A stretch of DNA of 64,000 nucleotides from Candidatus Parcubacteria bacterium (lineage in GTDB: Bacteria > Patescibacteriota > Minisyncoccia > JACPXH01). Positions within the stretch are counted from its first letter, which is position 1. Each line of letters starts with the position of its first letter. The position numbers and the translations under genes were made by a program. The notes beneath the pieces are model-generated. The model had not been told where the DNA came from. It searched no databases and saw only the letters and a list, made by a program, of their open reading frames with translations. The DNA lies in the NCBI GenBank assembly GCA_016196625.1, contig JACPXH010000007.1:18631-82630 (forward strand), in the 5' to 3' direction. This document shows positions 6,606 to 44,637 of this stretch, piece by piece.

Positions 6606-6617
6606 GACTCTTCCTCC

Positions 6618-8165
6618 TTACGCCGACTTCCGGTGGAAGACGGCGTTGCTCACCATATCGCTCAGAAAACTTATGCCTAACTCCATGAGCGGATACACGC
6701 GCCAGAACTGCCGTGAGGTGAGGGGGGTCTCTCCTGCCGTCGGGGTAGCGCCCGGCTGGCCGCCGGTCTGCTTACCCTGTTTGATCGCGGCGACGGTTTC
6801 GCCCAACGAGGCGCGGCCTTCACGGATATCCACCTCGCCTACGCCGTATTTCCGAGTAATCGATTGCTTCGCACGTCGCCATGAGCGGCGCGCGTCGTCG
6901 CGGAACACCGCGAAGAAGCAGACGATCATCACGATGATGGAAGCCCAGAATCCGCGCCAGTACCACTTCACGAAACCAGAAACCATTTTCGGTTGTGGCC
7001 GCTGGACCTTGATCCCCTCCCGGTCAAGCTCCGCATCGGTCTTGAACTTTCCGAAACGGTACTCATTCCGGTACCGCTGGGCGATTTCGCTCGGCGGCGC
7101 GGTCAGCTTAACCTCCCATGAGGAAGGGTTGAAGCCGACCATCGTAAGCCCGACCACGAGGAGGATCACGTTGAGGATTCCTAATACGTAGAAGGGTTTA
7201 TTGCTGACATCCCGGACGGGGCCGTCGAGAGACAGTCGATGGTCCTTCGACGTTCCGCGGAGGAACAGGTGGACCCCCCGACTTTTCTCGGCGAAATCCA
7301 TCTTGAACTCAACGATGCCGTCGGCATCGGTTCGCCGAATGGGCGGATCAATGCCGGCGCCAACGATCTCTACCTGCCAGTCCGGCACCGGCTGTTTGGC
7401 AGCGTCGAAGACGGCAACGCGAATGGTTTGTTTCCCATCTTCGCCGCTGACCTTAATCTCCCAGTCGTCCGCCCGGCGTATCTGGCTGGCCTGGTCCAAC
7501 TCTTGCTCGATCTGCGCGAGCTCACGCCGAAGCTTCGCCTCGGCCACCTGCTTTTCGAGCGAACTCGGCTGTGCCCCGAGTTTCTCGAGGTCAGCCGTGA
7601 TGCGTGCGAGCTCGAGCTTGAGCCGCGCTTCCGTGACATTCCTTTCGGTATCGCTCGGCGTTGCGCCAAGCTTCTTGAGTTCGGCGTCAATGCGAGCAAG
7701 CTCAAGCCGGAGGCGCGCGTCTACGAGTTTCTTCTCGTTCGAATCGGGCCGCTGGCGGAGCCTCGCAAGTTCCGCAGCAACCTTCGTCCGTTCGAGTTTG
7801 AGTTTGTCGTGCTCGAGCGAAACTTCCTCGGCCGATTTCTGTTTCGGTAGCTCGGGGACCATAAGAAGTCGTTCTGTCCGCTGGCCTCCGATTGCCACCT
7901 CGGCGAGGTAGTGGTGACCCGGACCTAGGCCGGTGATGGCTTTGGTGGCATAGCGATCTTGAACCGGTACTGCCCGGCCGAACCGTTCGCCATCCATATA
8001 GAAGATTGCCTCGGGGATTTCCCCCTCCCAGTCGCCACGCGCAAACGCGCGTAGCGTCGTGGAGTAGGTGTCATCCGCCGCGAGGGCAAGGGGTGTGTTG
8101 GTAATCTCTACCGACGGTCGCTGACGCCGTCGCTCCCTTCTGTCTCTTCCTTCATCTGCCATCAC
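6618..8165 (-). CDS. hypothetical membrane-anchored protein with tandem 23-aa coiled-coil repeats and a carboxypeptidase-regulatory-like beta domain
   Basis: 515-aa ORF; repeats KLELARI(D/T)A(E/D)L(K/E)KLGA(T/Q)PS... x3-4; two TM segments near C-terminus. Confidence 0.5.
   Translation of the reverse strand: MMADEGRDRRERRRQRPSVEITNTPLALAADDTYSTTLRAFARGDWEGEIPEAIFYMDGERFGRAVPVQDRYATKAITGLGPGHHYLAEVAIGGQRTERLLMVPELPKQKSAEEVSLEHDKLKLERTKVAAELARLRQRPDSNEKKLVDARLRLELARIDAELKKLGATPSDTERNVTEARLKLELARITADLEKLGAQPSSLEKQVAEAKLRRELAQIEQELDQASQIRRADDWEIKVSGEDGKQTIRVAVFDAAKQPVPDWQVEIVGAGIDPPIRRTDADGIVEFKMDFAEKSRGVHLFLRGTSKDHRLSLDGPVRDVSNKPFYVLGILNVILLVVGLTMVGFNPSSWEVKLTAPPSEIAQRYRNEYRFGKFKTDAELDREGIKVQRPQPKMVSGFVKWYWRGFWASIIVMIVCFFAVFRDDARRSWRRAKQSITRKYGVGEVDIREGRASLGETVAAIKQGKQTGGQPGATPTAGETPLTSRQFWRVYPLMELGISFLSDMVSNAVFHRKSA
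7540..7800. repeat. intragenic tandem ~69-bp repeats encoding the coiled-coil units of the 6618-8165 protein
   Basis: repeated gcgagctcgagcttgagccgcgc / gcgagcaagctcaagccggaggcgcgc units seen directly. Confidence 0.5.
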
Positions 8166-19240: not shown

Positions 19241-19483
19241 ATGTTGGTGCTCACGCGGCGGTTAGGAGAGCGGATCAAAATCGGGGATGACGTTTCCGTG
19301 GTCGTGTTGGAAATCAAGGGTGGCCAGGTGCGGTTGGGGATTGAAGCTTCGTCGGCGGTTCCGGTGCATCGCGAGGAGATCTGGAAGAAAATCAAGCAGC
19401 AGAGGGAGGAGGAAGATGGAGGAGCGGCGCGAGCAGATGCACCACCTGTTCTTCACGGCGCGTGCCTGGCGGGGGAGCGATGA
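19241..19483 (+). CDS. csrA: carbon storage regulator CsrA homolog with C-terminal extension
   Basis: [48 protein letters not shown], near-identical to CsrA consensus. Confidence 0.8.
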
Positions 19484-20979: not shown

Positions 20980-21860
20980 ATTGGCTCCTCTTCGCTCTGA
21001 GCGCGTACTTTCTTAATGCGGTCGCCACGACCGTTGACAGCATTCTGTTGCGCCGGCGCATCCCGGAGCCGCTCACGTATACCACGTATGTGGGCTTGGT
21101 GAGTATTTTTGCGTTGGTGCTGGCGCCGTGGGGGTTTGGGGTGCCGAGTGCGGGGCTCGCGGTATTGAGCATACTTACCGGTTGTGTGTTTCTCGGGAGC
21201 TTGGCGGTTATCTTCCAGCTGCTTAAATCGTTCGAACCCTCGCGTTCGGCCGCGGTGGCAGGCACCGCCACGGTGCTCATATTACTCGCGGCGGAACGAC
21301 TGCTCATGGGTACAACCTTCACGAGCGCGGAACTTGCGGCCGTGGTGCTTTTGCTTGGGGGCATTTTTTTGCTGACACATCGTAGCAGCGGGGCAGCTCA
21401 ACGCGGGCGGTTCATGCGGCTTACGCTGGCGGCCGGAGGTCTGGGGGCACTTTATTTGTTTTTGGCCAAGATTGTTTTCGGCGCGCTCGGGTTTGTGAAC
21501 GGGTTTATCTGGACTCGGTTGGGTGCGTTCTTGGGGGCGTTGGTGCTGTGGCTGGTATTGAGGTTGCGCGGCCGCGGCGAGCCGATGCCCGCAGCGAGTG
21601 CGTTGGTGCTGGCCAACCGTACCGTAGCCGGAGTTGGTTCAGTGCTCATGAATGGAGCCGTGGCGCTGGCGAGTCCGGCCTTGGTGAGCGCGCTCAGAGG
21701 CAGCGAGTACGCGTTCCTGTTTTTGTTGGCGTTTGCACTGTCTGCGTTTGCGCCGCAGCTGTTGCAGGAAGAGCTGCGGGCAAAACGCGTGGTTGAAAAA
21801 ATCGCGGGCTTGGTTTCGGTCGCGTTCGGCTTAGCGCTTCTTACATTTGGCAAACCATGA
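20976..21860 (+). CDS. EamA/DMT-like 10-TM transporter
   Basis: two repeats of 5 TM helices; start MNWLL overlaps GH1 stop. Confidence 0.45.
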   Translation: MNWLLFALSAYFLNAVATTVDSILLRRRIPEPLTYTTYVGLVSIFALVLAPWGFGVPSAGLAVLSILTGCVFLGSLAVIFQLLKSFEPSRSAAVAGTATVLILLAAERLLMGTTFTSAELAAVVLLLGGIFLLTHRSSGAAQRGRFMRLTLAAGGLGALYLFLAKIVFGALGFVNGFIWTRLGAFLGALVLWLVLRLRGRGEPMPAASALVLANRTVAGVGSVLMNGAVALASPALVSALRGSEYAFLFLLAFALSAFAPQLLQEELRAKRVVEKIAGLVSVAFGLALLTFGKP

Positions 21861-22882
21861 GATTTCTCCCGCGTTGGTTTTTCCGTTTGGTCTTGCTCGT
21901 TTTGCTCGTGTTGGCGGCAGTAGTGGCCTTTGCCTGGTGGCAGGTGCGCGCAGTGCCTGATAACCCGCACGTGCGCTACGGCGTTACGTTTTCGGCCAAA
22001 CGCGCCGAAGATCTGTTTCGGCTCGATTGGCGACGGGCGTATCTGTCCGTACTTGACGATCTCAAAGTTCGCCGCTTGCGGATTCCGGCGTACTGGGACC
22101 GGATTGAGAAAGAGAGCGGAGCCTATGACTGGGCAGAACTCGACTTTCAGATGAAAGAGGCAGAAACGCGTAACGCCTCGGTCTTGCTCGCGGTGGGCTT
22201 GCGGCTGCCCGGCTGGCCGGAATGCCACATGCCCGATTGGGTCAAGAGTTTGAACACCGCAGAACGCGAAGCAAAAATTCTGGCATTCATTGAACGGGCG
22301 GTCGAGCGCTACAAACCCTCGCGAGCCGTCTGGGCCTGGCAGGTGGAAAATGAACCGTTCCTGTTTGGGTTCGGCGAGTGTCCGGCTTTGGACGTGCAAT
22401 TTTTGGACAAGGAGATTGCTCTCGTGCGCACCCTGGATGATCGAGCCGTCGTTATCACCGATTCGGGCGAGCTGGGCCGCTGGATCAGGCCCGCGCGTCG
22501 GGCTGACATTTTTGGTACCACCATGTACCGAACCGTCTGGGATCGCCGCGTTGGCTATGTGCATTATCCTATGGGCCCGGTGTTCTTTCGGATCAAGGCT
22601 TGGATTGCCCAGCACATTGTTCGAGTTAAACGCATCATCGTGGCGGAACTGCAAGCTGAGCCCTGGGGGCCCAAGCAGATTCCAGAGATTTCCATTGAGG
22701 AGATGGCCAAATCCATGAACGTGGAGAAGTTTCGGGATATTATTCGTTTTGAGCAAGAGACTGGCTTTGATGAAGTGTATTGGTGGGGAGTGGAGTGGTG
22801 GTATTGGATGAAAATGAGGCAAGGCAAGCCCGAGATGTGGGAGGAGGCGGCGAGACTATTTGTCCAACAGAGCCGCCGTTGA
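21857..22882 (+). CDS. membrane-anchored glycoside hydrolase, clan GH-A (GH5/GH113-like)
   Basis: N-terminal TM, WQVENEP catalytic-acid motif, Trp-rich C-terminus. Confidence 0.5.
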   Translation: MRFLPRWFFRLVLLVLLVLAAVVAFAWWQVRAVPDNPHVRYGVTFSAKRAEDLFRLDWRRAYLSVLDDLKVRRLRIPAYWDRIEKESGAYDWAELDFQMKEAETRNASVLLAVGLRLPGWPECHMPDWVKSLNTAEREAKILAFIERAVERYKPSRAVWAWQVENEPFLFGFGECPALDVQFLDKEIALVRTLDDRAVVITDSGELGRWIRPARRADIFGTTMYRTVWDRRVGYVHYPMGPVFFRIKAWIAQHIVRVKRIIVAELQAEPWGPKQIPEISIEEMAKSMNVEKFRDIIRFEQETGFDEVYWWGVEWWYWMKMRQGKPEMWEEAARLFVQQSRR

Positions 22883-23036
22883 CTTTTTGGTTTCTTTGGA
22901 GATAAAATGTGGCATCCCGATGGGAGGCTGGCCGCCACAGCCAGTCCATTAGCCGTTTTGGGACCGGCTCATCGCGCTGACTGTGCAGCCTCTCATCGGG
23001 ACCAGTTACGCAACCCATCGTCAGGGAGGGAACGAA

Positions 23037-23294
23037 ATGGCAGAGAAAACGCAGAAGCGGGTCGAGCGCGCGCAACGTCGTCAGGACCCAGATGGAGGTT
23101 CGCCACCAGCCGCAAACCCCGAGACCGTCGAACGAGGGAAGAAGGTCAGCGAGAAGCTCGACGCGTTGGCCCAAGAGATAGACGAGCTTTTGGCGCAAGA
23201 GGCCGAGCGGCGAGGGCATGGCACGGGCGAAGCTGCCTCGATCGCCGCAGCCGATGAGATCGTCAACACGTATGTTCAGTTCGGCGGGGAGTAA
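23037..23294 (+). CDS. pup: prokaryotic ubiquitin-like protein Pup homolog ending YVQFGGE
   Basis: 85-aa disordered E/A/Q-rich protein; KLDALAQEIDELLAQEAE helix region matches Pup Mpa-binding segment; C-terminal IVNTYVQFGGE matches Pup [FY]VQKGG[QE]; GGGAGGG SD 6 nt upstream. Confidence 0.6.
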   Translation: MAEKTQKRVERAQRRQDPDGGSPPAANPETVERGKKVSEKLDALAQEIDELLAQEAERRGHGTGEAASIAAADEIVNTYVQFGGE

Positions 23295-23364
23295 GTAGCT
23301 CGCATTGGCCAGAAGCCCCCGCGCTTCGCGCGAGGGCTTCAATAGAGTAGAGAGGAGGTGTCCT

Positions 23365-23736
23365 GTGAGAGCGACCGCGAAGTATCCGACAAGGAGAAAC
23401 GAGCTCCTCACGAGTGCTCTTTTCCCAGACAGGAGCTACCCCGAAGAATTTGCTCGGGCTGTTACGGCAGAGTTACCCGATTGGGAGGACATCCACTTGG
23501 CTTTGAGCGAATCGGACTTTATGGTCGGCGCGCTGCTGGGCATTTTTGGGAGAGGGCACTTGGGATCCCCAGAGCAGATAGTCGCCGATTTCGCAGGAGG
23601 CAGGGCTCACGACGTGAGGGCGAGAGCCGAGCGGGTCATCCGTTGTCGCCGGCTCTTTGAACAGTGGTTGGCCATCACGGATTCTTGGAGGGGCCAGCCG
23701 TCTATCGAGCGTAAGATGACGCCCGTCCTTGCGTAG
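23365..23736 (+). CDS. hypothetical protein (124 aa from GTG with strong SD)
   Basis: agaggagg SD before GTG 23365; no recognisable domain. Confidence 0.4.
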   Translation: MRATAKYPTRRNELLTSALFPDRSYPEEFARAVTAELPDWEDIHLALSESDFMVGALLGIFGRGHLGSPEQIVADFAGGRAHDVRARAERVIRCRRLFEQWLAITDSWRGQPSIERKMTPVLA

Positions 23737-23815
23737 GGAGGTATCAGGTCTCGCCCCACGGGGCGAGGCCTCTTGTTTTTGGCCCACTTTGCGCGCTACG
23801 GTACATACGCGTTCT

Positions 23816-25390
23816 ATGACCGAAAGCCGCCATTATTTGCGCGTCGGCCGCGCCACTGATCTGGTTGATTCGTCCGAGCGGCACCTCTACCGGGCACTCG
23901 AGATCTTCCCGGGCGCTTTGGCGTGGGTGACGCTTGTTTTTGTCGTCATCGGCTCGGCGTTTTTCCCGGTGGCGATTGCCCTTTTTATTATTGCTTTTGA
24001 CGTCTATTGGCTGCTTAAAACAGTTTATTTGTCGCTACACCTGCGGGCCGCGTACCGTCGTTTACGTGTCAACTTGGCCACTGACTGGCGGCAAAAGCTC
24101 GAAGCGTTGCCGGCGCATGCATACACGCTACCGATTGAGTCATGGCGTCAGCTCGACCATTTGGTGATTTTGCCAATGGTGGACGAAGGGTTGGAAGTGG
24201 TGCGGCCGACCATGCAGATGCTCGCCGCCTCGCATTACCCCTTGGAGCAACTGATGGTGGTATTGGCCATTGAAGCGCGGGTAGGAGAGTCCGCTCGGCA
24301 GGTGGCCCAGACGATCGAAGCAGAATTCGGAGCGCTTTTCGGCGCGTTTCTCGTTACCGTCCACCCCGATGGACTTGGCGGAGAGATTCGCGGCAAAGGC
24401 TCGAACGAGACGTGGGCGGCCCGGGAGGTGAAAGAGAAGATTGTTGATCCGCGCCGCATTCCCTACGAACACATCATCGCTTCGGTCTTTGATGTTGATA
24501 CCGTGGTTCGGCCGGATTTTTTCGCGTGCCTCACGTACCAGTACCTAACCACCCCGAACCCCACCCGCAAGAGCTTTCAACCTGTTCCATTTTATTCAAA
24601 CAACATCTGGCAGGCGCCGGCACTCGCTCGGGTGGTCGCGCTCTCGGCCACGTTCTGGCACATGATGCAACAAGAGCGGCCCGAGCGACAGACCACTTTT
24701 TCTTCGCACGCCATGTCCTTTGCCCCGCTTGTCGAGATCGGTTTCTGGCAGACCAACGTGGTCTCCGAGGACTCGCGGATTTTCTGGCAGTGCTATCTTC
24801 ACCTTGACGGCGATTGGCGGGTGGTCCCCCTGTACTATCCAGTTGAAATGGATGCGAACCTCGCTCCAACCTTCTGGCAGACGATGGCCAATGTATATAA
24901 GCAGCAGCGCCGGTGGGGATACGGGGTTGAAAACGTGCCCTACTTTCTCTACGGGTTTTTGAAAAACAAGGCGGTTCCCTTTCGGAAAAAACTTCGGTTC
25001 GGGTTCATGGTGATTGAGGGCTTCCACGCCTGGGCCACCAATGCGCTCATTATCTTTCTTTTGGGGTGGTTGCCGTTAGTTTTGGGCGGACGGCTGTTTA
25101 ACGTAACCGTGCTCTCGGCCAACCTGCCGGTGGTAACGCGCAACCTCATGACGCTGTCCATGATCGGGTTGGTGTCATCAGCCGTGCTTTCACTCAACTT
25201 GCTTCCGCCGAGGCCCCCGGAATACGGACGATTCCGATATCTGTGGATGGTGCTCCAGTGGCTATTCATGCCGTTGACTATCATCGTCTTTGGCGCGCTC
25301 CCCGGTTTGGAAGCTCAGACGCGGTTGATGCTGGGTCGCTACATGGGGTTTTGGGTCACGCCTAAGGTGCGCAGGTCCGCAGCAGCGTGA
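23816..25390 (+). CDS. processive family-2 glycosyltransferase (cellulose-synthase-like, QxxRW)
   Basis: multi-TM, DxD-containing GT-A core, YKQQRRWGYG (QxxRW) motif. Confidence 0.7.
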   Translation: MTESRHYLRVGRATDLVDSSERHLYRALEIFPGALAWVTLVFVVIGSAFFPVAIALFIIAFDVYWLLKTVYLSLHLRAAYRRLRVNLATDWRQKLEALPAHAYTLPIESWRQLDHLVILPMVDEGLEVVRPTMQMLAASHYPLEQLMVVLAIEARVGESARQVAQTIEAEFGALFGAFLVTVHPDGLGGEIRGKGSNETWAAREVKEKIVDPRRIPYEHIIASVFDVDTVVRPDFFACLTYQYLTTPNPTRKSFQPVPFYSNNIWQAPALARVVALSATFWHMMQQERPERQTTFSSHAMSFAPLVEIGFWQTNVVSEDSRIFWQCYLHLDGDWRVVPLYYPVEMDANLAPTFWQTMANVYKQQRRWGYGVENVPYFLYGFLKNKAVPFRKKLRFGFMVIEGFHAWATNALIIFLLGWLPLVLGGRLFNVTVLSANLPVVTRNLMTLSMIGLVSSAVLSLNLLPPRPPEYGRFRYLWMVLQWLFMPLTIIVFGALPGLEAQTRLMLGRYMGFWVTPKVRRSAAA

Positions 25391-26312: not shown

Positions 26313-28526
26313 TTACTCTAGGTGTGCCTCTGACTCAAACTCAGCCAGCTGCTTTTTGAGCAGCGGCCAGCGCACCAGATCAGCGCTTTGTTGAAGCAGC
26401 AATTCGGCTTCGGCTCGTGCGGCTTTGATGAGCCGGCCGTCAGCGAGACTCGCCATGGCGAGATCCGGCAGGCCGGATTGCCGTGTCCCCAGAAAGTCTC
26501 CGGGACCACGGATCTGCAAGTCTTTCTCCGCGAGTTCAAATCCGGACTTCGCCTCGATGACGGCTCTGAGCCTTTGATGCGCGGTACGCGAGGTTGAATC
26601 GGTGAGTATAAGGCAGAAAGATTGGTGCTCGGCCCGCCCCACCCGACCGCGGAATTGGTAGAGCTGGGCCAGCCCGAAGTGCTCGGCGCCCTCAATCATC
26701 ATTACGGTTGCATTCGGTACATCCACGCCTACCTCCACTACCGAGGTAGAAACGAGGAGGTCCAACTCACCTTGAGCAAAGCGCGCCATTACCGATGCCT
26801 TCTCTTTCGCGCGCAATTTTCCGTGGAGCATGCCAACTCGGAGATCGCGGAATACCTCTTTGGAGAGCTTTTCGTATTCAACCGTGACGGCCTTGACCTC
26901 GGCGCGAAGGAGCGCAAGCTGACCGCGAGCGTTCGGGTGTGGACTATTCGCATCTTCGAGTTCGATGCGTGGACAGATGACAAACACTTGCCGTCCGCGG
27001 CGAACTTCTTCCCGAATAAACCGGTAGGCACGCTCTCGTTCGGTCGGTGCTACGAGTTTCGTTTCGATGGGTCGTCGTCCTTGCGGCAGTTCATCGAGAA
27101 TGGAGAGGTCCAAATCGCCGTAGATGGTGAGCGCCAGCGTGCGAGGAATCGGGGTGGCGCTCATACTCAAAAGATGGGGGGTGAGCTTATCAGGGTTTAG
27201 CGGAGCATTCGGAGCTTCTGGGGTAGCTGCTTCTGCCCGCGTCTGTCCGCGGGCAATGAGCGAAGCTCGCTGTTCAACTCCGAACCGATGCTGCTCATCT
27301 ACGATGACGAGCGCAAGTTTAGGGATGGCGACGTGCTTTTGCAGGAGCGCGTGTGTTCCGACCACGATGTCGGCGAGGCCTTCGCGAATGTGCGCATGCA
27401 GTTGTTTTTTTGAGGTGGTCATTCCCTCTCCGCCGGAAAAAAAACGCGCTTCAGAGCTGGTCAGCAGCGCGGCCGAGGCAGTGCCGAACGGAAACAGTTT
27501 TTTGAGCGTGAGGAAATGTTGGCGGGCGAGGATTTCCGTGGGCGCCATGAAGGCAGTCTGCCAGCCGGCGCGGCTCGCGAGGTACGCCGCGATGGCCGCC
27601 ACCACAGTCTTGCCGGAACCCACGTCGCCTTCGAGGAGTCGCGCCATGGGGTGGGGCTTGGCGATGTCCTGAAGAATCTCCCAGACCGCCTTGCGTTGGG
27701 CATTGGTGAGCGGGAAGGGGAGGGATGCGACAAACTGTTTTACCTCGGCCAGATCCAATGGGACAGCCGGAGCGGCCAGCTCGCTGATTTTTGCGCGCGC
27801 CTTGAGGTGCGAGAGTTGTATAAGGAGGAGCTCTTCGAAGGCGAGCCGGCGTCTCCCCTCTTTGGCCCTTTCGAGCGTAGTAGGGAAGTGGGTTTGTTGG
27901 AGCGCTTGGTCTAATGGCAGGAGTGTCTGGCGTCGGATCGTTTCTGCGGGCAGGGGATCGGGCCAGTCCCCTGCTGTTTTCACGAGCGGTTGGATGAGGA
28001 ATCTGAGCCAGCGACTGGTGAGCCCGGCGGTCTCGGGGTAGACGGGGACAAGGCGCCCCGTGTGCAGCATGTCTGAATCGCCTTTTTCGGTTCGCGCTCC
28101 GCGGAGCACCTCGTGACTGGGGTGAGAGAAGAGTAGGCCGCGGTTGTCGAGAGAAACCTTGCCGGAGACGGCGACGAGGTATCCTTGCCGGAGGGAATCG
28201 GAAAGGTACGGCTGGTTGAACCAGACCGCACGGACCGAACCGGTAGCGTCCCGCAGAACCGCCTCGGTAACCATCATGCGTTTTCGCCACGTGCGCTGGG
28301 ATTTGACCGAGGCGACCTCTCCTTTTATTGATGCAGTCTCCCCCGCCTTTAAGTCGCGAATTGCGGTTACGTTCGAAAAATCTTCGTACCGGCGGGGCAG
28401 GTGCAAGAGCAAGTCGCGTACGGTTTCGATGCCGAGATTTTTCAGGCGCTTCGCGACCATAGGCCGCACCCGCGGCAGTTTAACCACGGGGCTCGCGAGG
28501 TTTGGAGAAATAATGCCTTTGATCAT
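26313..28526 (-). CDS. recG: ATP-dependent DNA helicase RecG
   Basis: wedge domain, GDVGSGKT Walker A, DEQHRFGV, C-terminal helicase motifs. Confidence 0.92.
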   Translation of the reverse strand: MIKGIISPNLASPVVKLPRVRPMVAKRLKNLGIETVRDLLLHLPRRYEDFSNVTAIRDLKAGETASIKGEVASVKSQRTWRKRMMVTEAVLRDATGSVRAVWFNQPYLSDSLRQGYLVAVSGKVSLDNRGLLFSHPSHEVLRGARTEKGDSDMLHTGRLVPVYPETAGLTSRWLRFLIQPLVKTAGDWPDPLPAETIRRQTLLPLDQALQQTHFPTTLERAKEGRRRLAFEELLLIQLSHLKARAKISELAAPAVPLDLAEVKQFVASLPFPLTNAQRKAVWEILQDIAKPHPMARLLEGDVGSGKTVVAAIAAYLASRAGWQTAFMAPTEILARQHFLTLKKLFPFGTASAALLTSSEARFFSGGEGMTTSKKQLHAHIREGLADIVVGTHALLQKHVAIPKLALVIVDEQHRFGVEQRASLIARGQTRAEAATPEAPNAPLNPDKLTPHLLSMSATPIPRTLALTIYGDLDLSILDELPQGRRPIETKLVAPTERERAYRFIREEVRRGRQVFVICPRIELEDANSPHPNARGQLALLRAEVKAVTVEYEKLSKEVFRDLRVGMLHGKLRAKEKASVMARFAQGELDLLVSTSVVEVGVDVPNATVMMIEGAEHFGLAQLYQFRGRVGRAEHQSFCLILTDSTSRTAHQRLRAVIEAKSGFELAEKDLQIRGPGDFLGTRQSGLPDLAMASLADGRLIKAARAEAELLLQQSADLVRWPLLKKQLAEFESEAHLE

Positions 28527-29483: not shown

Positions 29484-29571
29484 CAAAGCTCAAATGTCAA
29501 ATCAAGTTCAAAATCCAAGGCCCACAACGCTTTGAGCTTTGAATTTGATTTGTCATTTGGATTTTCTTACA
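29484..29571. repeat. AT-rich palindromic intergenic element, copy 2
   Basis: caaagctcaaatgtcaaatcaa ... ttgatttgtcatttggatttt; 22-nt block identical to copy 3. Confidence 0.6.
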
Positions 29572-30239
29572 ATGGCTATCGGCGTTTGTTCGTCTGATTG
29601 TCCCAGCGGGTTGTCGCGGAAGACGGCTTTGGCGAACTGGTCCGTGATACCCCCGCTTTTCCCGAGCACCGCAACCCCAAGATCATTGGCGTCAATGATG
29701 ACGACCGGCGCGCCTACGGCTGCGCTTAGCGCTATCGCGACGCGATCCGGTTCTTTGGGGCCGAGCTTGGCGTATTTATTGTAGGGCGGCAGGGTATAGT
29801 CGCACGGGCCATCGATGGCGGCGACAGTTGGTCCGGCAATTTTGTAGAACACGCCCCGGATACCGAAGGGTTTCGTGGATAAGGCGGCGAGTGCGGCCAG
29901 TATTATCCGCGCGGCACCAGCCTCCCGAACGGCAAGCTCCATAGTCCACGGGCTGCCCAGGCCAATTCCATAGGGAGATTTGTGGACGAACCGCACGAGG
30001 AGACGCGCCAGCCACGAGGGATTTATATCTTTAATGGGGAAGGCTCGGCCTTGGGCGATAGCCACGACGCGCTCGGCGATGAACACGTGGTCGTCTGGCT
30101 GCAAGTGCGGCCGGACATAGCGTTCCATGATGTTGGGCAGTTGATCGCGCGCCGTAATCACATGCGTGCGGATAGGCAGCCGTTGCCAGCGTTCCGCGCC
30201 GACCGCAATCTCAAGGCGTTTGTTTGGGTTGGGCGTCAT
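29553..30239 (-). CDS. CofE-family (F420-0:gamma-glutamyl ligase-like) protein
   Basis: core from MTPNPN.. resembles CofE/FbiB-N fold (DVVVSSK-like HVFIAERVVAIAQGRAF, GPxxAAIDGP, IIDANDLG). Confidence 0.45.
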   Translation of the reverse strand: MTPNPNKRLEIAVGAERWQRLPIRTHVITARDQLPNIMERYVRPHLQPDDHVFIAERVVAIAQGRAFPIKDINPSWLARLLVRFVHKSPYGIGLGSPWTMELAVREAGAARIILAALAALSTKPFGIRGVFYKIAGPTVAAIDGPCDYTLPPYNKYAKLGPKEPDRVAIALSAAVGAPVVIIDANDLGVAVLGKSGGITDQFAKAVFRDNPLGQSDEQTPIAIVRKSK

Positions 30240-30420
30240 CGGGCGATTCGAGTCTCTCCAGCGCGGCGAGCTCTTGGCGTAGGCCAGCGAGTAGTTTTTC
30301 TTGTTCAGCCGCAGTGAGGTCCGTAAAGATGTCTTGCCAGTACGAAAGTTCTTCGGCATCTTCGCCGTGGGAGACGAGTTTGCGGACGAGTTCACCGAGT
30401 TCTGGGCCTGGGTCGGTCAT
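30211..30420 (-). CDS. small hypothetical protein (69 aa)
   Basis: ORF only; overlaps neighbours by a few nt on both sides. Confidence 0.25.
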   Translation of the reverse strand: MTDPGPELGELVRKLVSHGEDAEELSYWQDIFTDLTAAEQEKLLAGLRQELAALERLESPDDAQPKQTP

Positions 30421-31610: not shown

Positions 31611-32066
31611 TTATTTTGTTTTTCTTTGACGACGCAACTTGCTCCTGAATCTCAGCAAATATCCATTTGCCTCCTTCGTAATAAAACTCTTTGTATCGTC
31701 CCCCTTATTAAAAAGACTCAATGCCTCTTTGAAAGAAAGCCAAGCAAACCCAGCGCCTTCATCGAATCTGAATTCTCTAGTTTTATATTTTGGATAAATG
31801 ATATAATGCATCTTCTCATTTTTATTGTGCGCTAAAACTTTGATGCATTTTTGTTCGACTGATACGCCAAGCTCTTCGTACAACTCACGTTCAAGCGCAT
31901 GGTTTGGATCATCTAAGTCTGCCGACTCGAGGGAGCCACCAAAATAGTCCCACTTATTTGGACTTGATATATCTCGTTTATCATCGCGCTTGTGGACTAA
32001 AACCAGTTTCTTATTTGGATCATAGAGGAAAAATCCAACCCGTGTGATTTTTTGCTTTCTTGGCAT
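31611..32066 (-). CDS. NUDIX hydrolase
   Basis: Nudix box GGSLESADLDDPNHALERELYEELGV. Confidence 0.75.
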   Translation of the reverse strand: MPRKQKITRVGFFLYDPNKKLVLVHKRDDKRDISSPNKWDYFGGSLESADLDDPNHALERELYEELGVSVEQKCIKVLAHNKNEKMHYIIYPKYKTREFRFDEGAGFAWLSFKEALSLFNKGDDTKSFITKEANGYLLRFRSKLRRQRKTK

Positions 32067-32483
32067 ATATCAAAGTATTATACGCTGAATTCAAAACGGC
32101 TTGAAATTTCCCCGAAAAACGGCTGGCGAGCCCGCGTATTTGTCCCTCGTAGCCCGAAGGGCGAAGTGGGAGCGGGCGAGCCAATGACTTCATTTCCTAA
32201 CTGGCGGTGTCTGTTTGAAAATATCCGAACGGAACTCTCTGGGCCCCGCCTGCGTTGAAACTTCGGCGGGCAGGTCGGCGGGCGGCCCCGCAACTATCTC
32301 GCTTCGCTCGAAGTGCGGGGTAAAAATTCCCCCCGACCCCCTGGAGTTTATCCCGCATAATCCCGAAGGGATTTGTGCGGGGCCCGCCTCGCCTTGCCTG
32401 CCCGACCGATAGGCGGGAACCGGAGCGGAAAGCATGCCCCGTAGTGAACGCGGAGCGTTCTACTACTGGGGGCGATTTCAAGT

Positions 32484-32819
32484 CTACATCGGCAACGGCA
32501 TTGATTCGTGCACTTCGATTTCACATCCACTTGACCACTCAAGATGGGGGTGTCCCTTAAGCATCGCTACGGCGTCTTTCATACTTTCAGCTTGCAGAAT
32601 TGAGTAGCCAACAACATCTTTGTCGCTCGGAGAGGTTCCGTCTTTGGTAACTTTTTGTCCATTAGCCAAAGGAGTTCCCATGTCCACAAGCCCACTACCA
32701 CATTTTTTAGCCCATGCCATCCACGGTTCCATCCCCTTTTTCATGTCTTCTGGGCTTACGTCTTTCATACCCGCCATTGCACTTTTTGACATGTGATAAA
32801 CTACAATAAATTTTTTCAT
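32484..32819 (-). CDS. YciI-like/DGPF-domain small protein (tentative)
   Basis: 111-aa ORF, loose resemblance to YciI-like alpha+beta barrel proteins. Confidence 0.3.
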   Translation of the reverse strand: MKKFIVVYHMSKSAMAGMKDVSPEDMKKGMEPWMAWAKKCGSGLVDMGTPLANGQKVTKDGTSPSDKDVVGYSILQAESMKDAVAMLKGHPHLEWSSGCEIEVHESMPLPM

Positions 32820-32917
32820 AGTCGTTGCATTTTTAATGATTTATTACTCGACCTTGATGGTATTGTACGCTAAGGAAAGAATGATCTCAAGTTTTTCTTT
32901 GGCGGCAATGCTGGAGA

Positions 32918-33208
32918 TTACAATCTGAAATAGAAAACAGGAGCACATGCCGCAAGTATGGCAACAATTTGAATTGCGAGGACCAAGAGCACTTGCTTTG
33001 GTCTCTGCGGCAACCACCTAATTGCGAAAAACGACACCATCAGTACTTCTAGAACTAGCCAAATTTGAAATAGATGTGCGCCCGTTCCTTCATCTGGCTG
33101 ACGGACGGGAACGCCGGATATCGCAATATAAATCAGCATTGTAGCCAAAACAATCAACGACATTGCTATTGGAATCCAAGCACTAGGCTTTTTTATTGTT
33201 GAATTCAT
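32918..33208 (-). CDS. small membrane protein (3 TM)
   Basis: 96-aa hydrophobic ORF; preceded by island repeat tctcaagtttttctttggcgg. Confidence 0.35.
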   Translation of the reverse strand: MNSTIKKPSAWIPIAMSLIVLATMLIYIAISGVPVRQPDEGTGAHLFQIWLVLEVLMVSFFAIRWLPQRPKQVLLVLAIQIVAILAACAPVFYFRL

Positions 33209-33394
33209 GGGCTTATCTCAAGTTTTTCTTTGGCGGAATACAAATTTGAGCGTGCGGAGTGCTCATGATTAGCTCTTTATAAAAAGAGGATGTGTGGTTC
33301 TATCGGTTGTGTTGCTCCAAGTCAGGATTTTTTCGGTAAAGAAAATATTGTACTAGAGTGATTCCCCACATGATAATGCCGACAGAAAAAGATA

Positions 33395-33592
33395 TTAGAG
33401 GTAGAAAGGCGTGGGTAGCATAAAAAAATGCAATTTGAGAAGCGTAAAAACATAGGCAATCAATATTGCCGTTACCGGTTGCCCGGATCTCTTTTCGCGA
33501 TAATTTTTTGCTATCTGGGCTGGTATGCCAACCAACACTAGGGTGAGTGCAAAAACGCTTACTAAAATGCTAAGAAAAAATATTAAGTCCAC
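33395..33592 (-). CDS. small membrane protein (65 aa)
   Basis: two TM helices; AT-rich. Confidence 0.25.
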   Translation of the reverse strand: MDLIFFLSILVSVFALTLVLVGIPAQIAKNYREKRSGQPVTAILIAYVFTLLKLHFFMLPTPFYL

Positions 33593-33783
33593 GATTATTT
33601 ACAGAATTATGGAAAAAATGTTTCTTTTGCCTTTATGGTTCGATAAGCTCACCACAGGTTGATACATCTTCTTCGTTTTCCTTGTCCGCCAAAGCCTTGG
33701 CGACGGCGGAGCCAAAAAATCCCTTTCAAATCCTAGCCGAGCGGCGCGTCCCGTGCCGCGAGCCAATGACTTCATTTCCCAAC

Positions 33784-33875
33784 TGGCGGTGGGCAGAGGA
33801 TTCGAACCTCTGTGGGATTTTTTAGATCCCCGCAGTTTAGCAAACTGCTGCCTTAAGCCACTCGGCCAGCCCACC
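33784..33875 (-). tRNA. tRNA-Ser (anticodon GCT), long variable arm, CCA encoded
   Basis: acceptor GGTGGGC/GCCCACC, D-arm TGGCCGAGTGG, anticodon stem GCAGT/ACTGC loop TTGCTAA, variable arm GGGGATCTAAAAAATCCCAC, T-loop TTCGAAT. Confidence 0.88.
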
Positions 33876-34004
33876 ATTTTAAATTTCTCGGCAAAGCCTA
33901 ATCAAGTCGTGGTCTCGTGTCTTCCCTGGCGACTTTTTGTCGCCCGTCAAAAGCTGCGCACGCTCGCTTTTGACCCACTCAGCCACGCCTCCTCCTTGTA
34001 TCCC

Positions 34005-34108
34005 TAACTGGCGGTGTATATTGAAAATAGCTCGAACGGAATTCTGTCCTCGCCCGCCTGCGGCGGGCTCGGGTCGGGAGGGCAAAAAATCCGCGCGGCT
34101 CCGCCGCG
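34005..34108. repeat. inverted repeat IRa-left (exact partner at 34870-34968); begins with tRNA-Ser 3'-end-like aactggcggtg and degenerate T-arm
   Basis: reverse complement of 34870-34968 matches over ~99 bp with no mismatches seen. Confidence 0.7.
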
Positions 34109-34148
34109 AACATTAACAATTTCAAGTTTTTCTTTGGCGGCAATTACG

Positions 34149-34790
34149 TTATTTTGAAAATTTAAAAGAATTGATCATTTCCAGAAATATCTCATCGGGT
34201 GCGGGCGCTTCTGTATCTCTCTGTTTGACCAGAAGATAAAGCCAACTATCCCTAGTCACAAATGCATTCTCAAGGTAACTATTTTCTCCCCCGAATGAGG
34301 CGTATATAACGGGAATGTATTTTCCTTTTACGCCATCGAAGAATGGTATTAATGCTTTTTCTTCCTCAATATCCCGAGGGAATCCAAGAAACGTATTGGA
34401 ATTCAAGAAGTTAAGATTTTGTGGTGAAGCGGTGAAGCTCGGCGCAACATATAATTCGGCCCCGCAAGAAAATTCCCTTTGATGAACTGGAGTAAAGCAA
34501 ATACTGTATAAAGAATTTAGTTTTGGTTCAGGGTAAAAATAAGGCGGTGGTATGGGATTCTTATCCTTGGGAAGTGTGTGGTCTTGTTCCAGTGGTTTTA
34601 AATCACTTGGATATTTTATCTCAAATCCATATTTTTCATTTCTATATGTTTTCCAGGTAAAAGTTTTAATCTGACTCAGAGGTTCCGGTTTTAGCGGCAG
34701 AGGAACATTTCCCGATTTTTTTGCAATAAAATAGCTTGCTAACACTATAATTGCAACGATTATTATTACCCAAGTTACTTTTGTTCTCAT
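34149..34790 (-). CDS. hypothetical secreted/membrane-anchored protein bracketed by IRa pair
   Basis: MRTKVTWVIIIVAIIVLASYF signal/anchor; AT-rich; ORF-track N-terminal extension is read-through of IRa. Confidence 0.5.
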   Translation of the reverse strand: MRTKVTWVIIIVAIIVLASYFIAKKSGNVPLPLKPEPLSQIKTFTWKTYRNEKYGFEIKYPSDLKPLEQDHTLPKDKNPIPPPYFYPEPKLNSLYSICFTPVHQREFSCGAELYVAPSFTASPQNLNFLNSNTFLGFPRDIEEEKALIPFFDGVKGKYIPVIYASFGGENSYLENAFVTRDSWLYLLVKQRDTEAPAPDEIFLEMINSFKFSK

Positions 34791-34869
34791 ATGATTAAAA
34801 AATTCCCCAAAAATTAAAATATGGTTCGAGCCGATTTGTTTTTCAGGTTCTTTGGCAGTTTGGGATCTT

Positions 34870-34968
34870 TGCGGCGGAGCCGCGCGGATTTTTTGCCCTC
34901 CCGACCCGAGCCCGCCGCAGGCGGGCGAGGACAGAATTCCGTTCGAGCTATTTTCAATATACACCGCA
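34870..34968. repeat. inverted repeat IRa-right
   Basis: see IRa-left. Confidence 0.7.
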
Positions 34969-35066
34969 AGTCAGGAAAACGCAAATTATGGACAGATGCC
35001 TCGCGGCGCGGGACGCGCCGCTCGGCTAGGGTTTGAAAGGGCTTTTTTGGCGAAAAGGAAAGGGAT
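34964..35066. repeat. inverted repeat IRb-left (partner 36478-36578, ~97% identical), abuts IRa-right
   Basis: caccgcaagtcaggaaaacgcaaattatggacagatgcctcgcggcgcgggacgcgccgctcggctagggtttgaaagggcttttttggcg is the reverse complement of 36478-36578. Confidence 0.7.
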
Positions 35067-35105
35067 TTATCAATCAGGGCAAAAGAATTTTTTAACTACA
35101 AAACT

Positions 35106-36656
35106 ATGAGATATATAATTTACGCGAGGAAATCCACGGAGAGTGAGGAACGACAGATATTAAGCATTGAATCTCAAATATCTGAATTGAAAGAATTTGC
35201 CGCCAAAGAAAAACTTGAAATTGTTGCCTCGCTTTGCGAAGCCCAAACTGCCAAAGAACCTGGGCGAATGAAATTCGCAGAGATGTTGTCATTTTTGGAA
35301 TCAGGAAAAGCAGACGGAATACTTTCTTGGAATCCAGATCGTCTCGCCAGAAATTCCATAGACGGAGGACAGATTATCTATCTGTTGGACACAGGAAAGA
35401 TAAAAGATTTGAAATTTCCAACGCACTGGTTTGAGAATACACCGCAAGGAAAATTCATGCTGAACATTGCCTTTGGGCAAAGCAAGTATTATGTGGACAA
35501 TTTGAGTGAGAACATCAAGCGTGGACATAGGGCAAAACTACGAAAAGGAATTTGGCCGAGCTTTGCCCCACTAGGATATACGAACAATCACAAAACGCGA
35601 GATGTTGATGTTGATTTGGAGAAAGCTCCGCTAGTCCGAAAAGGTTTTGAGCTTTACTCAACTGGTAAATATACCCTTAAGCAAATAGCTAAAATTTGGA
35701 AAGATCTCGGATTGCGGAGCTACAAAGGCAATGTTCTAGCAGTTTCCTGTGTCCAGCGAATTTTGAAAAGTACATTTTACTATGGAATTTTCGAGTTCAA
35801 TGGCGAGACGTATCAAGGTTCGCACGAGCCGTCAATCTCAAAGAAACTTTTTGATAACTGTCAGGAAATAATGAAGGATCGCGGACATATTATGACTAGA
35901 AAATCAGAGAAAACTTTTCCATTTCGCGGTTTGCTCACTTGTGGAGAATGTAAATGCGCCATTACCGCCGAAACACAAAAAGGACACAACTATTATCGTT
36001 GCACCAAGAAGCGCGAACTGTGTTCACAAAAATATGTCCGCGAAGAATTGCTCACCGAGCAAGTAAAAAGTTTTCTTCAAAAAGTTTCTTTGCCGAGCCA
36101 AGACATGGAAAAAGTTTTGCGCGAGTTGGACAAGGACGAGCAGAAAGCAAGAGAGGATAGTTTAGCTCTGGTTAGTACTTTGAAAAATGATTTAGTGGAC
36201 ATAGAAACAAGGTTAGACAAATTGCTTTCTGCTTACCTCGATAAAGTAATTACATCGGAAGAATATGCCGCGCAAAAACAAAAAATGCTCGACCAGAGAG
36301 TAGAGCTGAAAGAGAAAATTCATGAAATCGAGGATAAAGGCGTGTCTTGGCTCGAACCAGCTCGTGCGTGGATTAAATCCTTGAATCAAGCGGAGAAACT
36401 GCTTTTGTCTGGGGATAAGTCGGAAATGACAACATTTCTAAAACAAATCGGCTCGAACCATATTTTGATCGATAAATCCTTTTCTTTTTCGCCAAAAAAG
36501 CCCTTTCAAATCCTAGCCGAGCGGCGCGTTCCGCGCCGCGAGGCATCTGTCCATAATTTGCGTTTTCCTGACTTGCGGAAGCGGGAGGATTCGAACCTCC
36601 GAAGGGGACTAGCCCCCAACTGGTTTTTCCCGATTTTGTTCACGCGGAACGCGTGA
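35106..36656 (+). CDS. large serine recombinase (resolvase catalytic domain + recombinase domain + zinc ribbon); C-terminal ~40 codons likely read-through into IRb-right
   Basis: YARKSTESEERQ..SIESQ catalytic Ser motif, ILSWNPDRLARN, CGECKC..YYRC zinc ribbon, coiled-coil; AT-rich. Confidence 0.8.
   Translation: MRYIIYARKSTESEERQILSIESQISELKEFAAKEKLEIVASLCEAQTAKEPGRMKFAEMLSFLESGKADGILSWNPDRLARNSIDGGQIIYLLDTGKIKDLKFPTHWFENTPQGKFMLNIAFGQSKYYVDNLSENIKRGHRAKLRKGIWPSFAPLGYTNNHKTRDVDVDLEKAPLVRKGFELYSTGKYTLKQIAKIWKDLGLRSYKGNVLAVSCVQRILKSTFYYGIFEFNGETYQGSHEPSISKKLFDNCQEIMKDRGHIMTRKSEKTFPFRGLLTCGECKCAITAETQKGHNYYRCTKKRELCSQKYVREELLTEQVKSFLQKVSLPSQDMEKVLRELDKDEQKAREDSLALVSTLKNDLVDIETRLDKLLSAYLDKVITSEEYAAQKQKMLDQRVELKEKIHEIEDKGVSWLEPARAWIKSLNQAEKLLLSGDKSEMTTFLKQIGSNHILIDKSFSFSPKKPFQILAERRVPRREASVHNLRFPDLRKREDSNLRRGLAPNWFFPILFTRNA
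36478..36578. repeat. inverted repeat IRb-right
   Basis: see IRb-left. Confidence 0.7.
36579..36650 (-). pseudogene. tRNA 3'-half-like fragment (T-arm GGAGG-TTCGAAT-CCTCC + acceptor 3' strand, no matching 5' acceptor)
   Basis: ggaggattcgaacctcc on + strand; no complementary GGAAGCG 5' strand found. Confidence 0.4.
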
Positions 36657-36683
36657 TTACAAAATCGAGGATCCCGTCCAAAG

Positions 36684-36770
36684 CGGCGAGGGTGAGATTC
36701 GAACTCACGATACCCTTTCGGGTATACCTGTTTTCAAGACAGGTCTGTTCAACCACTCCAGCACCTCGCC
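36684..36770 (-). tRNA. tRNA-Ser (anticodon TGA), long variable arm, no encoded CCA
   Basis: acceptor GGCGAGG/CCTCGCC, anticodon stem CCTGT/ACAGG loop CTTGAAA, variable arm TATACCCGAAAGGGTATC, T-loop TTCGAAT. Confidence 0.85.
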
Positions 36771-36822
36771 GCTTTGTTCGGGACAAGACCGTTCCTTTCA
36801 ACCACTCAGGCACCCCGCCGCA

Positions 36823-37527
36823 TTATCTGGCCACAACTACGCCCCACACTTCCCTTGCGCCGGCTGACCGTAAGGCCCGCGCGCACGCAGAGAGTGTGGC
36901 GCCAGTGGTGGCTACATCATCTACGAGGACAATCACCCTTGGCAAGATTCGCGCGTTTCCGGAGAGTGCAAAAGCTCCGGCCACGTTGGCCCGGCGCAAA
37001 TCTGGATTCGAAAGTTCTACTTGCGGTTTGGTCCTGCGAGTTCGGATAATGGCCGGCACGAGAGGGAGATTGAAGGTTGCGGCCAGAGAGGCGGCTAGCA
37101 GTTCTGCCTGATTGAAGCCGCGCTCGTGCAGGCGGGAGGGGTGGAGCGGCACCGGCACGAATACGGCATCACGGGTCAGATGCGGCGCGAATTCCCGGAG
37201 GGTTCCCGCAACCAAGTGGGCTAGGATCGTGGTAATTTCGCGTACCCGCTGGTACTTTAGTTCGTGGATGAGTTCTCGCGCGAGCGGATCGCCGTAGGAG
37301 AGGCTGGCTACGAGGCCCGTAAGATTGAGCTTTTTGCGGCATGCGCCACAGGTTCGGCCGTCCGGCCGGCGCCGACCGCAAGCAAGGCAGGTGAGCCCAG
37401 GCAGTTTTACAAGACGGGCCGCGCAGGCGGAGCAAAGGTACGCTCCTTCAGTGCCGCACCCCACACACTGGCGCGGAAAGAGAAGGCTTAACCCGGCCGA
37501 GTAGAGGTTGCGTCCAAACGCGAGCAT
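36823..37527 (-). CDS. comF: ComF-family competence protein (zinc-finger + phosphoribosyltransferase domain)
   Basis: CVGCG..CSAC..CLACG Cys clusters; VLVDDVATTGATL PRTase motif. Confidence 0.8.
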   Translation of the reverse strand: MLAFGRNLYSAGLSLLFPRQCVGCGTEGAYLCSACAARLVKLPGLTCLACGRRRPDGRTCGACRKKLNLTGLVASLSYGDPLARELIHELKYQRVREITTILAHLVAGTLREFAPHLTRDAVFVPVPLHPSRLHERGFNQAELLAASLAATFNLPLVPAIIRTRRTKPQVELSNPDLRRANVAGAFALSGNARILPRVIVLVDDVATTGATLSACARALRSAGAREVWGVVVAR

Positions 37528-40119: not shown

Positions 40120-40251
40120 CAGGAGTAGAGCCACACGTATCGAGACGTGTGTTGAGGCGTTGCAGTTCTTGCTGTGCGCTTGAGAGTTAGGCCACAGGTA
40201 CAACGGCTCGCCGTCTGGTGGTGTTGTTTTGCTAAAATACTTAAGGCAGGT

Positions 40252-41956: not shown

Positions 41957-41960
41957 TCGT

Positions 41961-42491: not shown

Positions 42492-42494
42492 TTC

Positions 42495-44623: not shown

Positions 44624-44637
44624 TTGTTGTCAGAAAT

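Follow-up and report, generated by a model that had tools for sequence, protein, structure and literature searches.

Canonical members of the Pup family, such as M. tuberculosis Rv2111c and the Pups of Nitrospirota, are proteins of 60-70 amino acids (aa) that are encoded next to dop and near mpa/arc and pafA, with or without prcBA. They consist of a charged, disordered-looking N-terminus, a ...GKK..LD.L..EID..L helix that continues uninterrupted into an [IF]V..[YF]VQ face, and a terminal GGE. To our knowledge, Pup is known only as a substrate of PafA and Dop and as a ligand of Mpa, and these three partners hold its sequence nearly constant across phyla. Here we describe a Pup-like gene in a stretch of 64,000 nucleotides (nt) from Candidatus Parcubacteria bacterium (assembly GCA_016196625.1, contig JACPXH010000007.1, positions 18,631 to 82,630 of the forward strand), referred to below as the window. 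The gene shares the N-terminus, the helix, the hydrophobic face and the terminal GGE with canonical Pup, but its product is 85 aa long, the product is split at 'LEEN|AEEFV', and none of the usual partner genes is adjacent. In addition, its core diverges faster than that of canonical Pup does between phyla, and the product falls below the cut-off of the NCBIfam model TIGR03687. Sequence comparison indicates that the gene belongs to a very rare, Parcubacteria-specific subfamily that departs from canonical Pup by an insert, a faster core and its uncoupling from partner genes.

UBact, reportedly described by Lehmann and colleagues in 2017, is the homologue of Pup in Gram-negative phyla and in a number of candidate phyla; its C-terminal signature reportedly differs, and its gene lies within an mpa-dop-ubact-prcBA-pafA locus. 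UBact and the window gene are both Pup-family tags found outside Actinobacteria, candidate phyla included, but the window gene has the Pup-type tail YVQFGGE and stands alone, and it does not have these traits of UBact. The Azambacteria cluster described below belongs to the same superphylum as the window, occupies the same chromosomal slot upstream of an orthologous GT2 gene and also has RecG convergent to it, but it keeps all three enzymes together with a canonical 61-aa Pup, whereas the window locus has only the remodelled pup. Proteasome-less pupylation of the Corynebacterium type resembles the window in having no 20S nearby and a Pup that ends in Glu, but in that type arc and dop are retained and pafA comes straight after pup (PMC3511204), and none of these is nearby in the window. 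A second Pup of Leptospirillum ferrooxidans (system L2) is without the terminal GGE and is encoded inside a complete second enzyme cluster (PMC3511204). The L2 Pup shows that strong divergence of Pup is possible, but unlike the window gene it is still clustered with its enzymes.

The open reading frame (ORF) is on the forward strand at 23037-23294, with its ATG at 23037 and its TAA at 23292-23294, and encodes the 85-aa product MAEKTQKRVERAQRRQDPDGGSPPAANPETVERGKKVSEKLDALAQEIDELLAQEAERRGHGTGEAASIAAADEIVNTYVQFGGE, in which Ala, Glu, Gly, Arg and Gln are abundant (A13, E12, G8, R7 and Q6). A first-pass annotation of this DNA had read the product as a Pup homologue ending in GGE, and this reading was borne out. 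The product matches the Pfam Pup model PF05639 with an E-value of 3.5e-8 and a score of 34.7 bits, above the gathering cut-off of 27, and PF05639 hits are also precomputed for all members of the insert-bearing subfamily. Against a profile restricted to canonical Pups, the product reaches 52.4 bits, and the highest score among 2000 shuffled versions of it is 9.8 bits. When PDB sequences were compared with a profile of the product and its two closest relatives, the five best matches were all Pup chains. The identical protein, encoded on a contig of 216,792 bp, is named 'ubiquitin-like protein Pup' [Candidatus Parcubacteria bacterium] at NCBI, so its Pup annotation is already known, and the label agrees with the suggestion in the first-pass annotation that the host belongs to the Candidate Phyla Radiation (CPR).

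The matches to the family models are partial. PF05639 aligns only to product residues 5-57 (model positions 5-57 of 69), and TIGR03687 (pupylate_cterm), an equivalog domain of 33 contiguous residues, scores 20.4 bits against a cut-off of 41.45 and covers no more than residues 72-85 of the product (model positions 20-33 of 33). Both alignments are truncated in this way because a 16-residue insert breaks the domain; no NCBIfam model besides TIGR03687 matches the product at E<=0.1. The sub-threshold TIGR03687 score and the Ala/Glu/Gln-rich composition are what would be expected if an unrelated small, acidic, low-complexity protein resembled Pup by chance, but the product scores 52.4 bits where its shuffles stay at or below 9.8, lies above the Pfam gathering score, aligns co-linearly from the N-terminus to GGE, and has only Pups as its top matches in two independent databases. 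The shuffle test, the gathering score and the Pup-only top matches refute a chance or low-complexity resemblance, to which we assign a probability close to zero. Judged from its sequence, the resemblance to Pup is not compositional.

An alignment of 21 sequences places the product co-linearly with canonical Pups over its full length, apart from the 16-residue insert, which the first-pass annotation had missed. Residues 28-59 (23118-23213) form an amphipathic helix, identified by co-linear alignment with canonical Pups and modeled by AlphaFold2 (AF2) with a predicted local distance difference test score (pLDDT) of ~88-94; this is the counterpart of the canonical Pup helix that binds the Mpa coiled coil and, as H1, PafA (ANPETVERGKK...EIDELLAQEAE). 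The subfamily-specific insert occupies residues ~56-71 (AERRGHGTGEAASIAA; 23202-23249, with boundaries ambiguous by 1-2 residues) and falls between canonical 'LEEN' and 'AEEFV', which corresponds in the product to the position between 'LAQE' and 'ADEIV'. The Pfam, NCBIfam and PDB matches all break at this site, and the PDB alignments pair query residues 32-57 with the Pup sequence 'ERREKLTEETDDLLDEIDDVLEENAE' and query residues 72-85 with 'AEDFVRAYVQKGGE'. The insert splits the H1-H2 segment (..EID.VLEENAEEFV..YVQ), and the segment that is contiguous in canonical Pups of 60-70 aa is interrupted here. Going by published PafA-Pup structures, the insert site is the short linker between the two Pup helices that lie in the PafA/Dop groove. 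The AF2 model, which was built on a shallow five-sequence alignment, consists of two helices, at residues 28-59 and 65-83, joined by a loop at 60-64 (GHGTG), with a mean pLDDT of 76.5 and values of about 85-94 over residues 30-80. It predicts that the insert forms a Gly-rich loop and an N-terminal extension of the second helix. A Foldseek comparison of the model with the PDB gave no meaningful match.

The Pup C-terminal motif YVQFGGE, at residues 79-85 (23271-23291), ends in a ligation-competent Glu and lies within the residues that align to pupylate_cterm. A tail of the form [YF]VQ[RF]G[GR]E is kept in all seven subfamily members, with codons that differ synonymously (GTT/GTC, CAG/CAA, GGC/GGA). 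The terminal residue is Glu in every one of the seven, preceded by GG in six and by GR in one. The subfamily also keeps the disordered-looking basic/acidic N-terminus, the amphipathic helix and the hydrophobic [IF]V..[YF]V face. The first-pass annotation had called a K to F change in the tail atypical; among the nearest canonical relatives this position is occupied by K, R or Q, six of the seven subfamily members have R there, and F is private to this genome, making the change unremarkable at a variable position.

The conserved tail bears directly on what the protein does. A ...[YF]VQxGGE tail has, as far as is known, a single role, entry into the active site of a carboxylate-amine ligase of the PafA/Dop type, and because of this we tentatively favor, at a little less than an even chance, the reading that the protein is still a covalent lysine tag that is ligated by a PafA-type enzyme encoded outside the window, without deamidation by Dop and with the insert looped out. 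Under this reading, the gamma-carboxylate of Glu85 would be joined to lysine by a PafA-type enzyme encoded beyond the window, Dop deamidation would be dispensable because all seven members already end in Glu, the insert would be a solvent-exposed loop between the two binding helices, and the tag would probably act independently of the proteasome.

Several observations weigh against the protein still being a PafA-ligated tag. The insert interrupts the H1-H2 segment that binds PafA and Dop, and one member ends in GRE rather than GGE. No partner gene is found in the window over the 23 kb upstream or the 41 kb downstream of the Pup-like gene, nor in the available flanks of five related loci (L002, L003, L013, L014 and L017), which are ~3 to 17 kb long (17.5 kb for L013, GCA_964409225.1, and 16.4 kb for L014, GCA_016186535.1); the orphan status of the gene covers the 64-kb window and these flanks. 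There is also no trace of pafA or dop fragments at the Pup-like locus. By comparison, pup is flanked by dop and by prcBA-pafA or pafA in 16 of 16 canonical loci (nine from Nitrospirota, one from a 66% GC contig and six from Azambacteria), and a review terms the pup gene order 'rigidly conserved' (PMC3511204). An arrangement with pup beside dop and near mpa/arc and pafA is seen neither in the window nor in the five related loci, and it is also missing from L101, the contig that carries the more distant insert-bearing protein P0005. The insert is found only in uncoupled genes, P0005 with its different context included, and insert and uncoupling coincide perfectly in our sample. Finally, the fast-evolving core of the subfamily, described below, suggests that at least some partner constraints have changed.

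The lack of partner genes in the window, which the first-pass annotation had already pointed out, was confirmed by two kinds of search. Pfam scans of nearly all window ORFs of at least 350 aa and most of those of 150-350 aa detected no Pup_ligase or Proteasome family, and a six-frame tblastn search of the window with Mpa, Dop, PrcB, PrcA and PafA from Nitrospirota and Mpa, Dop and PafA from Azambacteria gave a best E-value of 0.8. The ORFs of at least 350 aa that fell outside the Pfam scans were RecG (26313-28526) and an overlapping antisense ORF (21452-22822), and both were covered by tblastn. On the strength of Pfam scans covering nearly all large and most mid-sized ORFs, and of tblastn with two divergent query sets, a hidden PafA, Dop, Mpa or 20S gene in the window was rejected. 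Two unannotated minus-strand proteins within 5418-8165, encoded by adjacent ORFs of 395 aa (5418-6605) and 515 aa (6618-8165), carried no ligase signal; they match no Pfam family and have weak coiled-coil-type NCBIfam matches. The sole Clp-type AAA+ protein found in the window is ClpB/ClpC-like (37527-40046).

Outside the window, a word search with Nitrospirota PafA returned at least 120 matches, and the named proteins among the matches listed were all Nitrospirota-type. A profile search of genome contigs with the subfamily alignment returned at least nine loci, from Nitrospirota only, among the matches listed. The best canonical relative with an NCBI record, P0025, was rejected as a second pup of the clade, being encoded on a 66% GC contig within a Nitrospirota-like full cluster. 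The P0005 gene (L101, 1090-1362) is also alone; its neighbors on a contig of 44% GC encode a secreted protein of 275 aa on one side and an MGMT-like protein of 83 aa on the other. This contig is CPR-like, and a GC-rich, repeat-like intergenic stretch of 575 nt (L101, 1363-1937) follows the gene.

The points gathered above also bear on a different explanation, in which PafA, Dop and Mpa have all been lost, pup has been kept for a new role, and the insert and fast core are adaptations to a new partner. The protein could then be a non-covalent helical-hairpin ligand or regulator of an AAA+ machine, such as the ClpB/ClpC-like protein at 37527-40046 or FtsH, or it could be the substrate of a different carboxylate-activating enzyme. 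This would fit the complete physical uncoupling in every available context, across two different genomic settings, the confinement of the insert to uncoupled genes, the missing enzyme fragments, the member with GRE, and a core that evolves faster than canonical Pup does across phyla; CPR genomes are, moreover, strongly reduced, and the AF2 model gives a confident helix-loop-helix rather than a disordered chain. On the other hand, the VQxGGE tail is under clear purifying selection, no alternative partner has been identified, ~90% of the genome lies outside the stretch analyzed, and the AF2 model rests on an alignment of five sequences. We regard such a PafA-independent Pup derivative, the main rival reading, as a substantial possibility, clearly below even. 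In its most specific form, this clade and the P0005 lineage would have lost PafA, Dop, Mpa and the proteasome and kept a remodelled Pup for a function that is ligase-independent or uses a different ligase, with the tail read by a new partner; we hold this to be a real possibility and on balance a doubtful one. If so, the insert would convert a disordered tag into a helix-loop-helix module.

Candidates for such a new partner are a CofE-like homologue encoded 6 kb downstream (29553-30395) and an AAA+ machine of the ClpC or FtsH type. The CofE-like protein is a distant match to the F420-0:gamma-glutamyl ligase family (PF01996) and is conserved in the clade (minus strand in the window, and also L013 16223-16915, minus strand). 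Its gene is absent from the flanks of 80 related GT2 loci, and the organism is unlikely to make F420. The CofE family activates the gamma-carboxylate of a terminal glutamate, which is the same chemistry as that of PafA, and proximity is the sole tie between this protein and the Pup-like gene. With weak family matches only and no PDB relative, the CofE-like protein was not accepted as an identified partner and stays a lead.

Next, we consider how common the subfamily is and how it evolves. A word-indexed search of 5.8 billion clusters found two relatives only, at 72% and 67% identity, and 21 proteins passed E<=1e-3 in an exhaustive HMMER scan of 1.84 billion representatives. The insert is carried by three of these 21, namely the window's own cluster, P0006 (MBI2624535.1, Candidatus Parcubacteria bacterium) and the 90-aa P0005, in which it is a different, 20-residue insert that looks as if part of the EID helix had been duplicated (DELIDEIDAELE). 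The remaining 18 are Pups of the ordinary kind, 65-98 aa long and ending in YVQ[KRQ]GG[EQ]. No match in JGI metagenomes was obtained with a degenerate DNA pattern that fits all known subfamily genes.

Among the three closest genes, Nei-Gojobori ratios of nonsynonymous to synonymous divergence (dN/dS) are 0.23-0.39 at dS values of 0.47-0.75, which indicates that the gene is under purifying selection; the C-terminal VQxGGE, kept through the synonymous codon changes given above, is likewise constrained. The gene is also retained at one and the same position across genomes whose neighboring proteins are only 70-77% identical. Between clade genomes, the Pup-like protein is 37-72% identical while neighboring proteins are 70-77% identical. 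The difference is also seen in a 35-residue core, which is 62-74% identical among the Pups of M. tuberculosis, Nitrospirota and Azambacteria, although these belong to different phyla, and only 40-63% identical between lineages of the insert subfamily, where flanking proteins are again 70-77% identical. On this comparison, the subfamily appears visibly less pinned than canonical Pup, which is held by Mpa, PafA and Dop, with the tail still fixed.

Accelerated divergence, the partners missing locally and one broken GG motif could also be seen in a decaying remnant of a lost pupylation cluster, a gene without current function on its way to becoming a pseudogene. However, the ORF is intact, with a conserved length and a strong ribosome-binding site in at least seven sequences from genomes with ~25% protein divergence, dN/dS is 0.23-0.39 where dS already reaches 0.47-0.75 between the closest members, synonymous change has left the C-terminal motif intact, and a structured leader and promoter are conserved upstream. 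We consider such decay very improbable, and the sequence evidence instead indicates that the 85-aa product is a true Pup-family protein that selection maintains.

The signals around the gene begin with a promoter-like site, TTGACT-18 nt-TAAAAT, at 22879-22908 on the forward strand, ~130 nt before the start codon, which matches the consensus at 10 of 12 positions; a TTGAYTT block is conserved in an upstream alignment of five genomes. Downstream of this site is a conserved structured 5' leader (22915-23001, forward strand), found by comparing five genomes, in which a long hairpin has a basal stem of 14-16 bp (UCCCGAUGGGAGGC...GCCUCUCAUCGGGA) that closes a variable interior. The stem is present in all five genomes, with 94% of cells paired and nine pairs changed on both sides, whereas none of 500 shuffles reaches the observed values and slid controls are 39-60% paired. 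The minimum free energy of the leader is -57 kcal/mol (z=-2.95), and it has no match in Rfam. The leader may be a post-transcriptional control element. In addition to the hairpin, nucleotides 23002-23004 pair with 23038-23040. The leader also contains GGA motifs in a loop and at the ribosome-binding site, and a CsrA gene is located 3.5 kb upstream (19241-19483).

The strong ribosome-binding site reported by the first-pass annotation is the Shine-Dalgarno sequence GGGAGGG at 23024-23030, 6 nt before the ATG, which is identical in L002 and partly kept (GAGGG) in L003. After the stop codon, a GC-rich hairpin (GAAGCCCCCGCGC-TTC-GCGCGAGGGCTTC) occupies 23312-23340 on the forward strand; it is terminator-like, lacks a U-tract here and was not called by a consensus terminator scan, and equivalent hairpins follow the stop codon in L002 and L003. 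The Pup-like gene, with a promoter-like site, structured leader, strong ribosome-binding site and post-stop hairpin of its own, is probably a separately regulated monocistronic unit.

The surroundings of the gene suggest where it came from. The gene order in the clade is class I tRNA synthetase, TsaD, molybdopterin oxidoreductase, GH1, EamA-like, a 341-aa glycoside hydrolase (GH), Pup-like, GT2-like, a small ORF and RecG. The GT2-like gene, a positional anchor at 23816-25390 on the forward strand, encodes a membrane glycosyltransferase of 524 aa that is 75-77% identical within the clade. When this protein was used to probe a metagenome collection, 80 loci (L019-L098) were recovered in which GT2 is 52-62% identical. 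The second anchor is the RecG helicase gene (26313-28526, minus strand), which is convergent with GT2 and whose product shares 71-75% identity within the clade and 51% with that of Azambacteria.

Six of the 80 GT2 loci (L026, L028, L029, L030, L035 and L071) have FtsH-mpa-dop-pup-pafA directly upstream of GT2, again with RecG convergent. The cluster lies at 2103-7795 of L026 (10001-15693 of L103) and is also present in L102. Pfam identifies two Pup_ligase proteins, proteasomal-ATPase OB domains and a Pup at 72 bits, and this Pup is canonical, 61 aa long (...EEFVKNFVQKGGE), with an N-terminal half that is without the ANPE..GKK block. By exact sequence match, the cluster proteins of the six loci are those of Candidatus Azambacteria metagenome-assembled genomes of the GW2011 and RIFCSP series (e.g., KKU18939.1 and OGD30307.1), and they are already named at NCBI and UniProt, as 'Proteasome-associated ATPase' and 'Pup--protein ligase'. 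No 20S genes are present within 10 kb on either side of the cluster. The Azambacteria Mpa ends in ...PTGHYL, a proteasome-docking-like motif, despite there being no 20S within that distance. A search of the available literature found no paper that discusses pupylation in Azambacteria, Parcubacteria, Patescibacteria or CPR. The view in the first-pass annotation that a Pup would be unusual in a CPR bacterium needs to be divided: the insert-bearing subfamily is very rare, but pupylation genes do occur in CPR, as the full mpa-dop-pup-pafA cluster of Azambacteria demonstrates.

Because the Pup-like gene and the Azambacteria pup occupy the same slot, upstream of an orthologous GT2 with RecG convergent, the Pup-like gene would most likely be the surviving, remodelled pup of an FtsH-mpa-dop-pup-pafA-type cluster. 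This origin has points against it as well. In a neighbor-joining tree of GT2, whose deep nodes are short, Azambacteria does not come out next to the window clade, so that a single ancestral cluster would need several losses. In the 80 loci, TsaD and GT2 are between ~80 nt and 6.4 kb apart, with TsaD abutting GT2 in many of the 74 loci other than the six above, and the cargo of the interval varies by Parcubacteria lineage between nothing, glycoside hydrolases and other genes; in the Azambacteria loci, TsaD was not seen within the fetched flanks. This interval is a variable region and could alternatively be an insertion hotspot. A further caveat on the origin is that the N-terminal ANPE[TV]VE[RK]GKK block of the subfamily resembles Nitrospirota-type Pups more closely than it does the lysine-rich Azambacteria Pup.

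The Nitrospirota-like N-terminal block could also be explained if the protein were a host-directed Pup mimic, with which an episymbiont interferes with the pupylation system of a Pup-bearing host (Nitrospirota or an actinobacterium) or which is conjugated by that system. Nearest canonical relatives of the Nitrospirota type, the lack of cognate enzymes nearby, a type IV pilus cluster in the window and the established episymbiosis of CPR bacteria would all suit such a mimic. It has, however, no signal peptide or secretion motif and no known host, and the insert lessens its likeness to a host Pup; the idea is purely speculative and, in our estimate, highly improbable.

The first-pass annotation had placed the gene in a glycan-enzyme cluster. 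GH and GT2 genes do adjoin it, but this setting appears incidental, and the constant neighbor is the GT2-like/RecG pair. A functional tie to a 'glycan cluster' is not supported: the upstream GH genes are clade-specific cargo of the variable TsaD-GT2 interval, and a promoter-like site and a hairpin belong to the Pup-like gene alone. The features that are truly atypical are the insert, the accelerated divergence of the core and the stable uncoupling, and not the K-to-F change or the glycan neighbors. In this genome only, an ORF of 123 aa (23365-23736, forward strand), with its own ribosome-binding site and a canonical terminator at 23746-23771, lies between the Pup-like and GT2-like genes. It has no homologue in L002, L003, L013, L014 or L017, in which GT2 starts 117-132 nt after the Pup-like gene, and no Pfam or NCBIfam match.

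Other features of the window are as follows. At its beginning, a partial GyrA (2-2218, forward strand) carries the C-terminal part of a splicing domain of the intein type (Pfam Intein_splicing, residues 4-31), which suggests that the gyrA at the start of the window contains an intein. A large serine recombinase (35106-36656) is encoded in a low-GC island at ~32000-36800 (42-47% GC, compared with about 58%). Two tRNA-Ser genes (33784-33875 and 36683-36770) bracket the island, which is probably a mobile element that has integrated. The type IV pilus cluster extends from 40174 to 52797 and encodes PilM, PilO, PilB, a PilT-like protein, PilC, several pseudopilins and a prepilin peptidase; it is followed by a gene for a surface protein of 799 aa with fn3 and Laminin_G_3 domains (52828-55227). 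A pilus cluster and a surface protein of this kind are typical of CPR episymbionts.

Taken together, the observation of an isolated Pup-like gene is confirmed, and the interpretation given in the first-pass annotation is supported with the qualifications stated above. What makes the gene of interest is that an insert within the enzyme-binding segment and isolation from partner genes occur together with purifying selection, in CPR bacteria with minimal genomes. If PafA is encoded elsewhere in the genome, as we tentatively favor, this would be a pupylation system of an unusual, split kind in Parcubacteria, a group in which pupylation has received little discussion, and the Azambacteria cluster would be a source of cognate CPR enzymes for biochemistry. 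If PafA is absent, the gene would represent a new, PafA-independent use of the Pup scaffold, and, if loss of PafA is true, its product would be the first Pup-family protein to work outside the PafA/Dop system.

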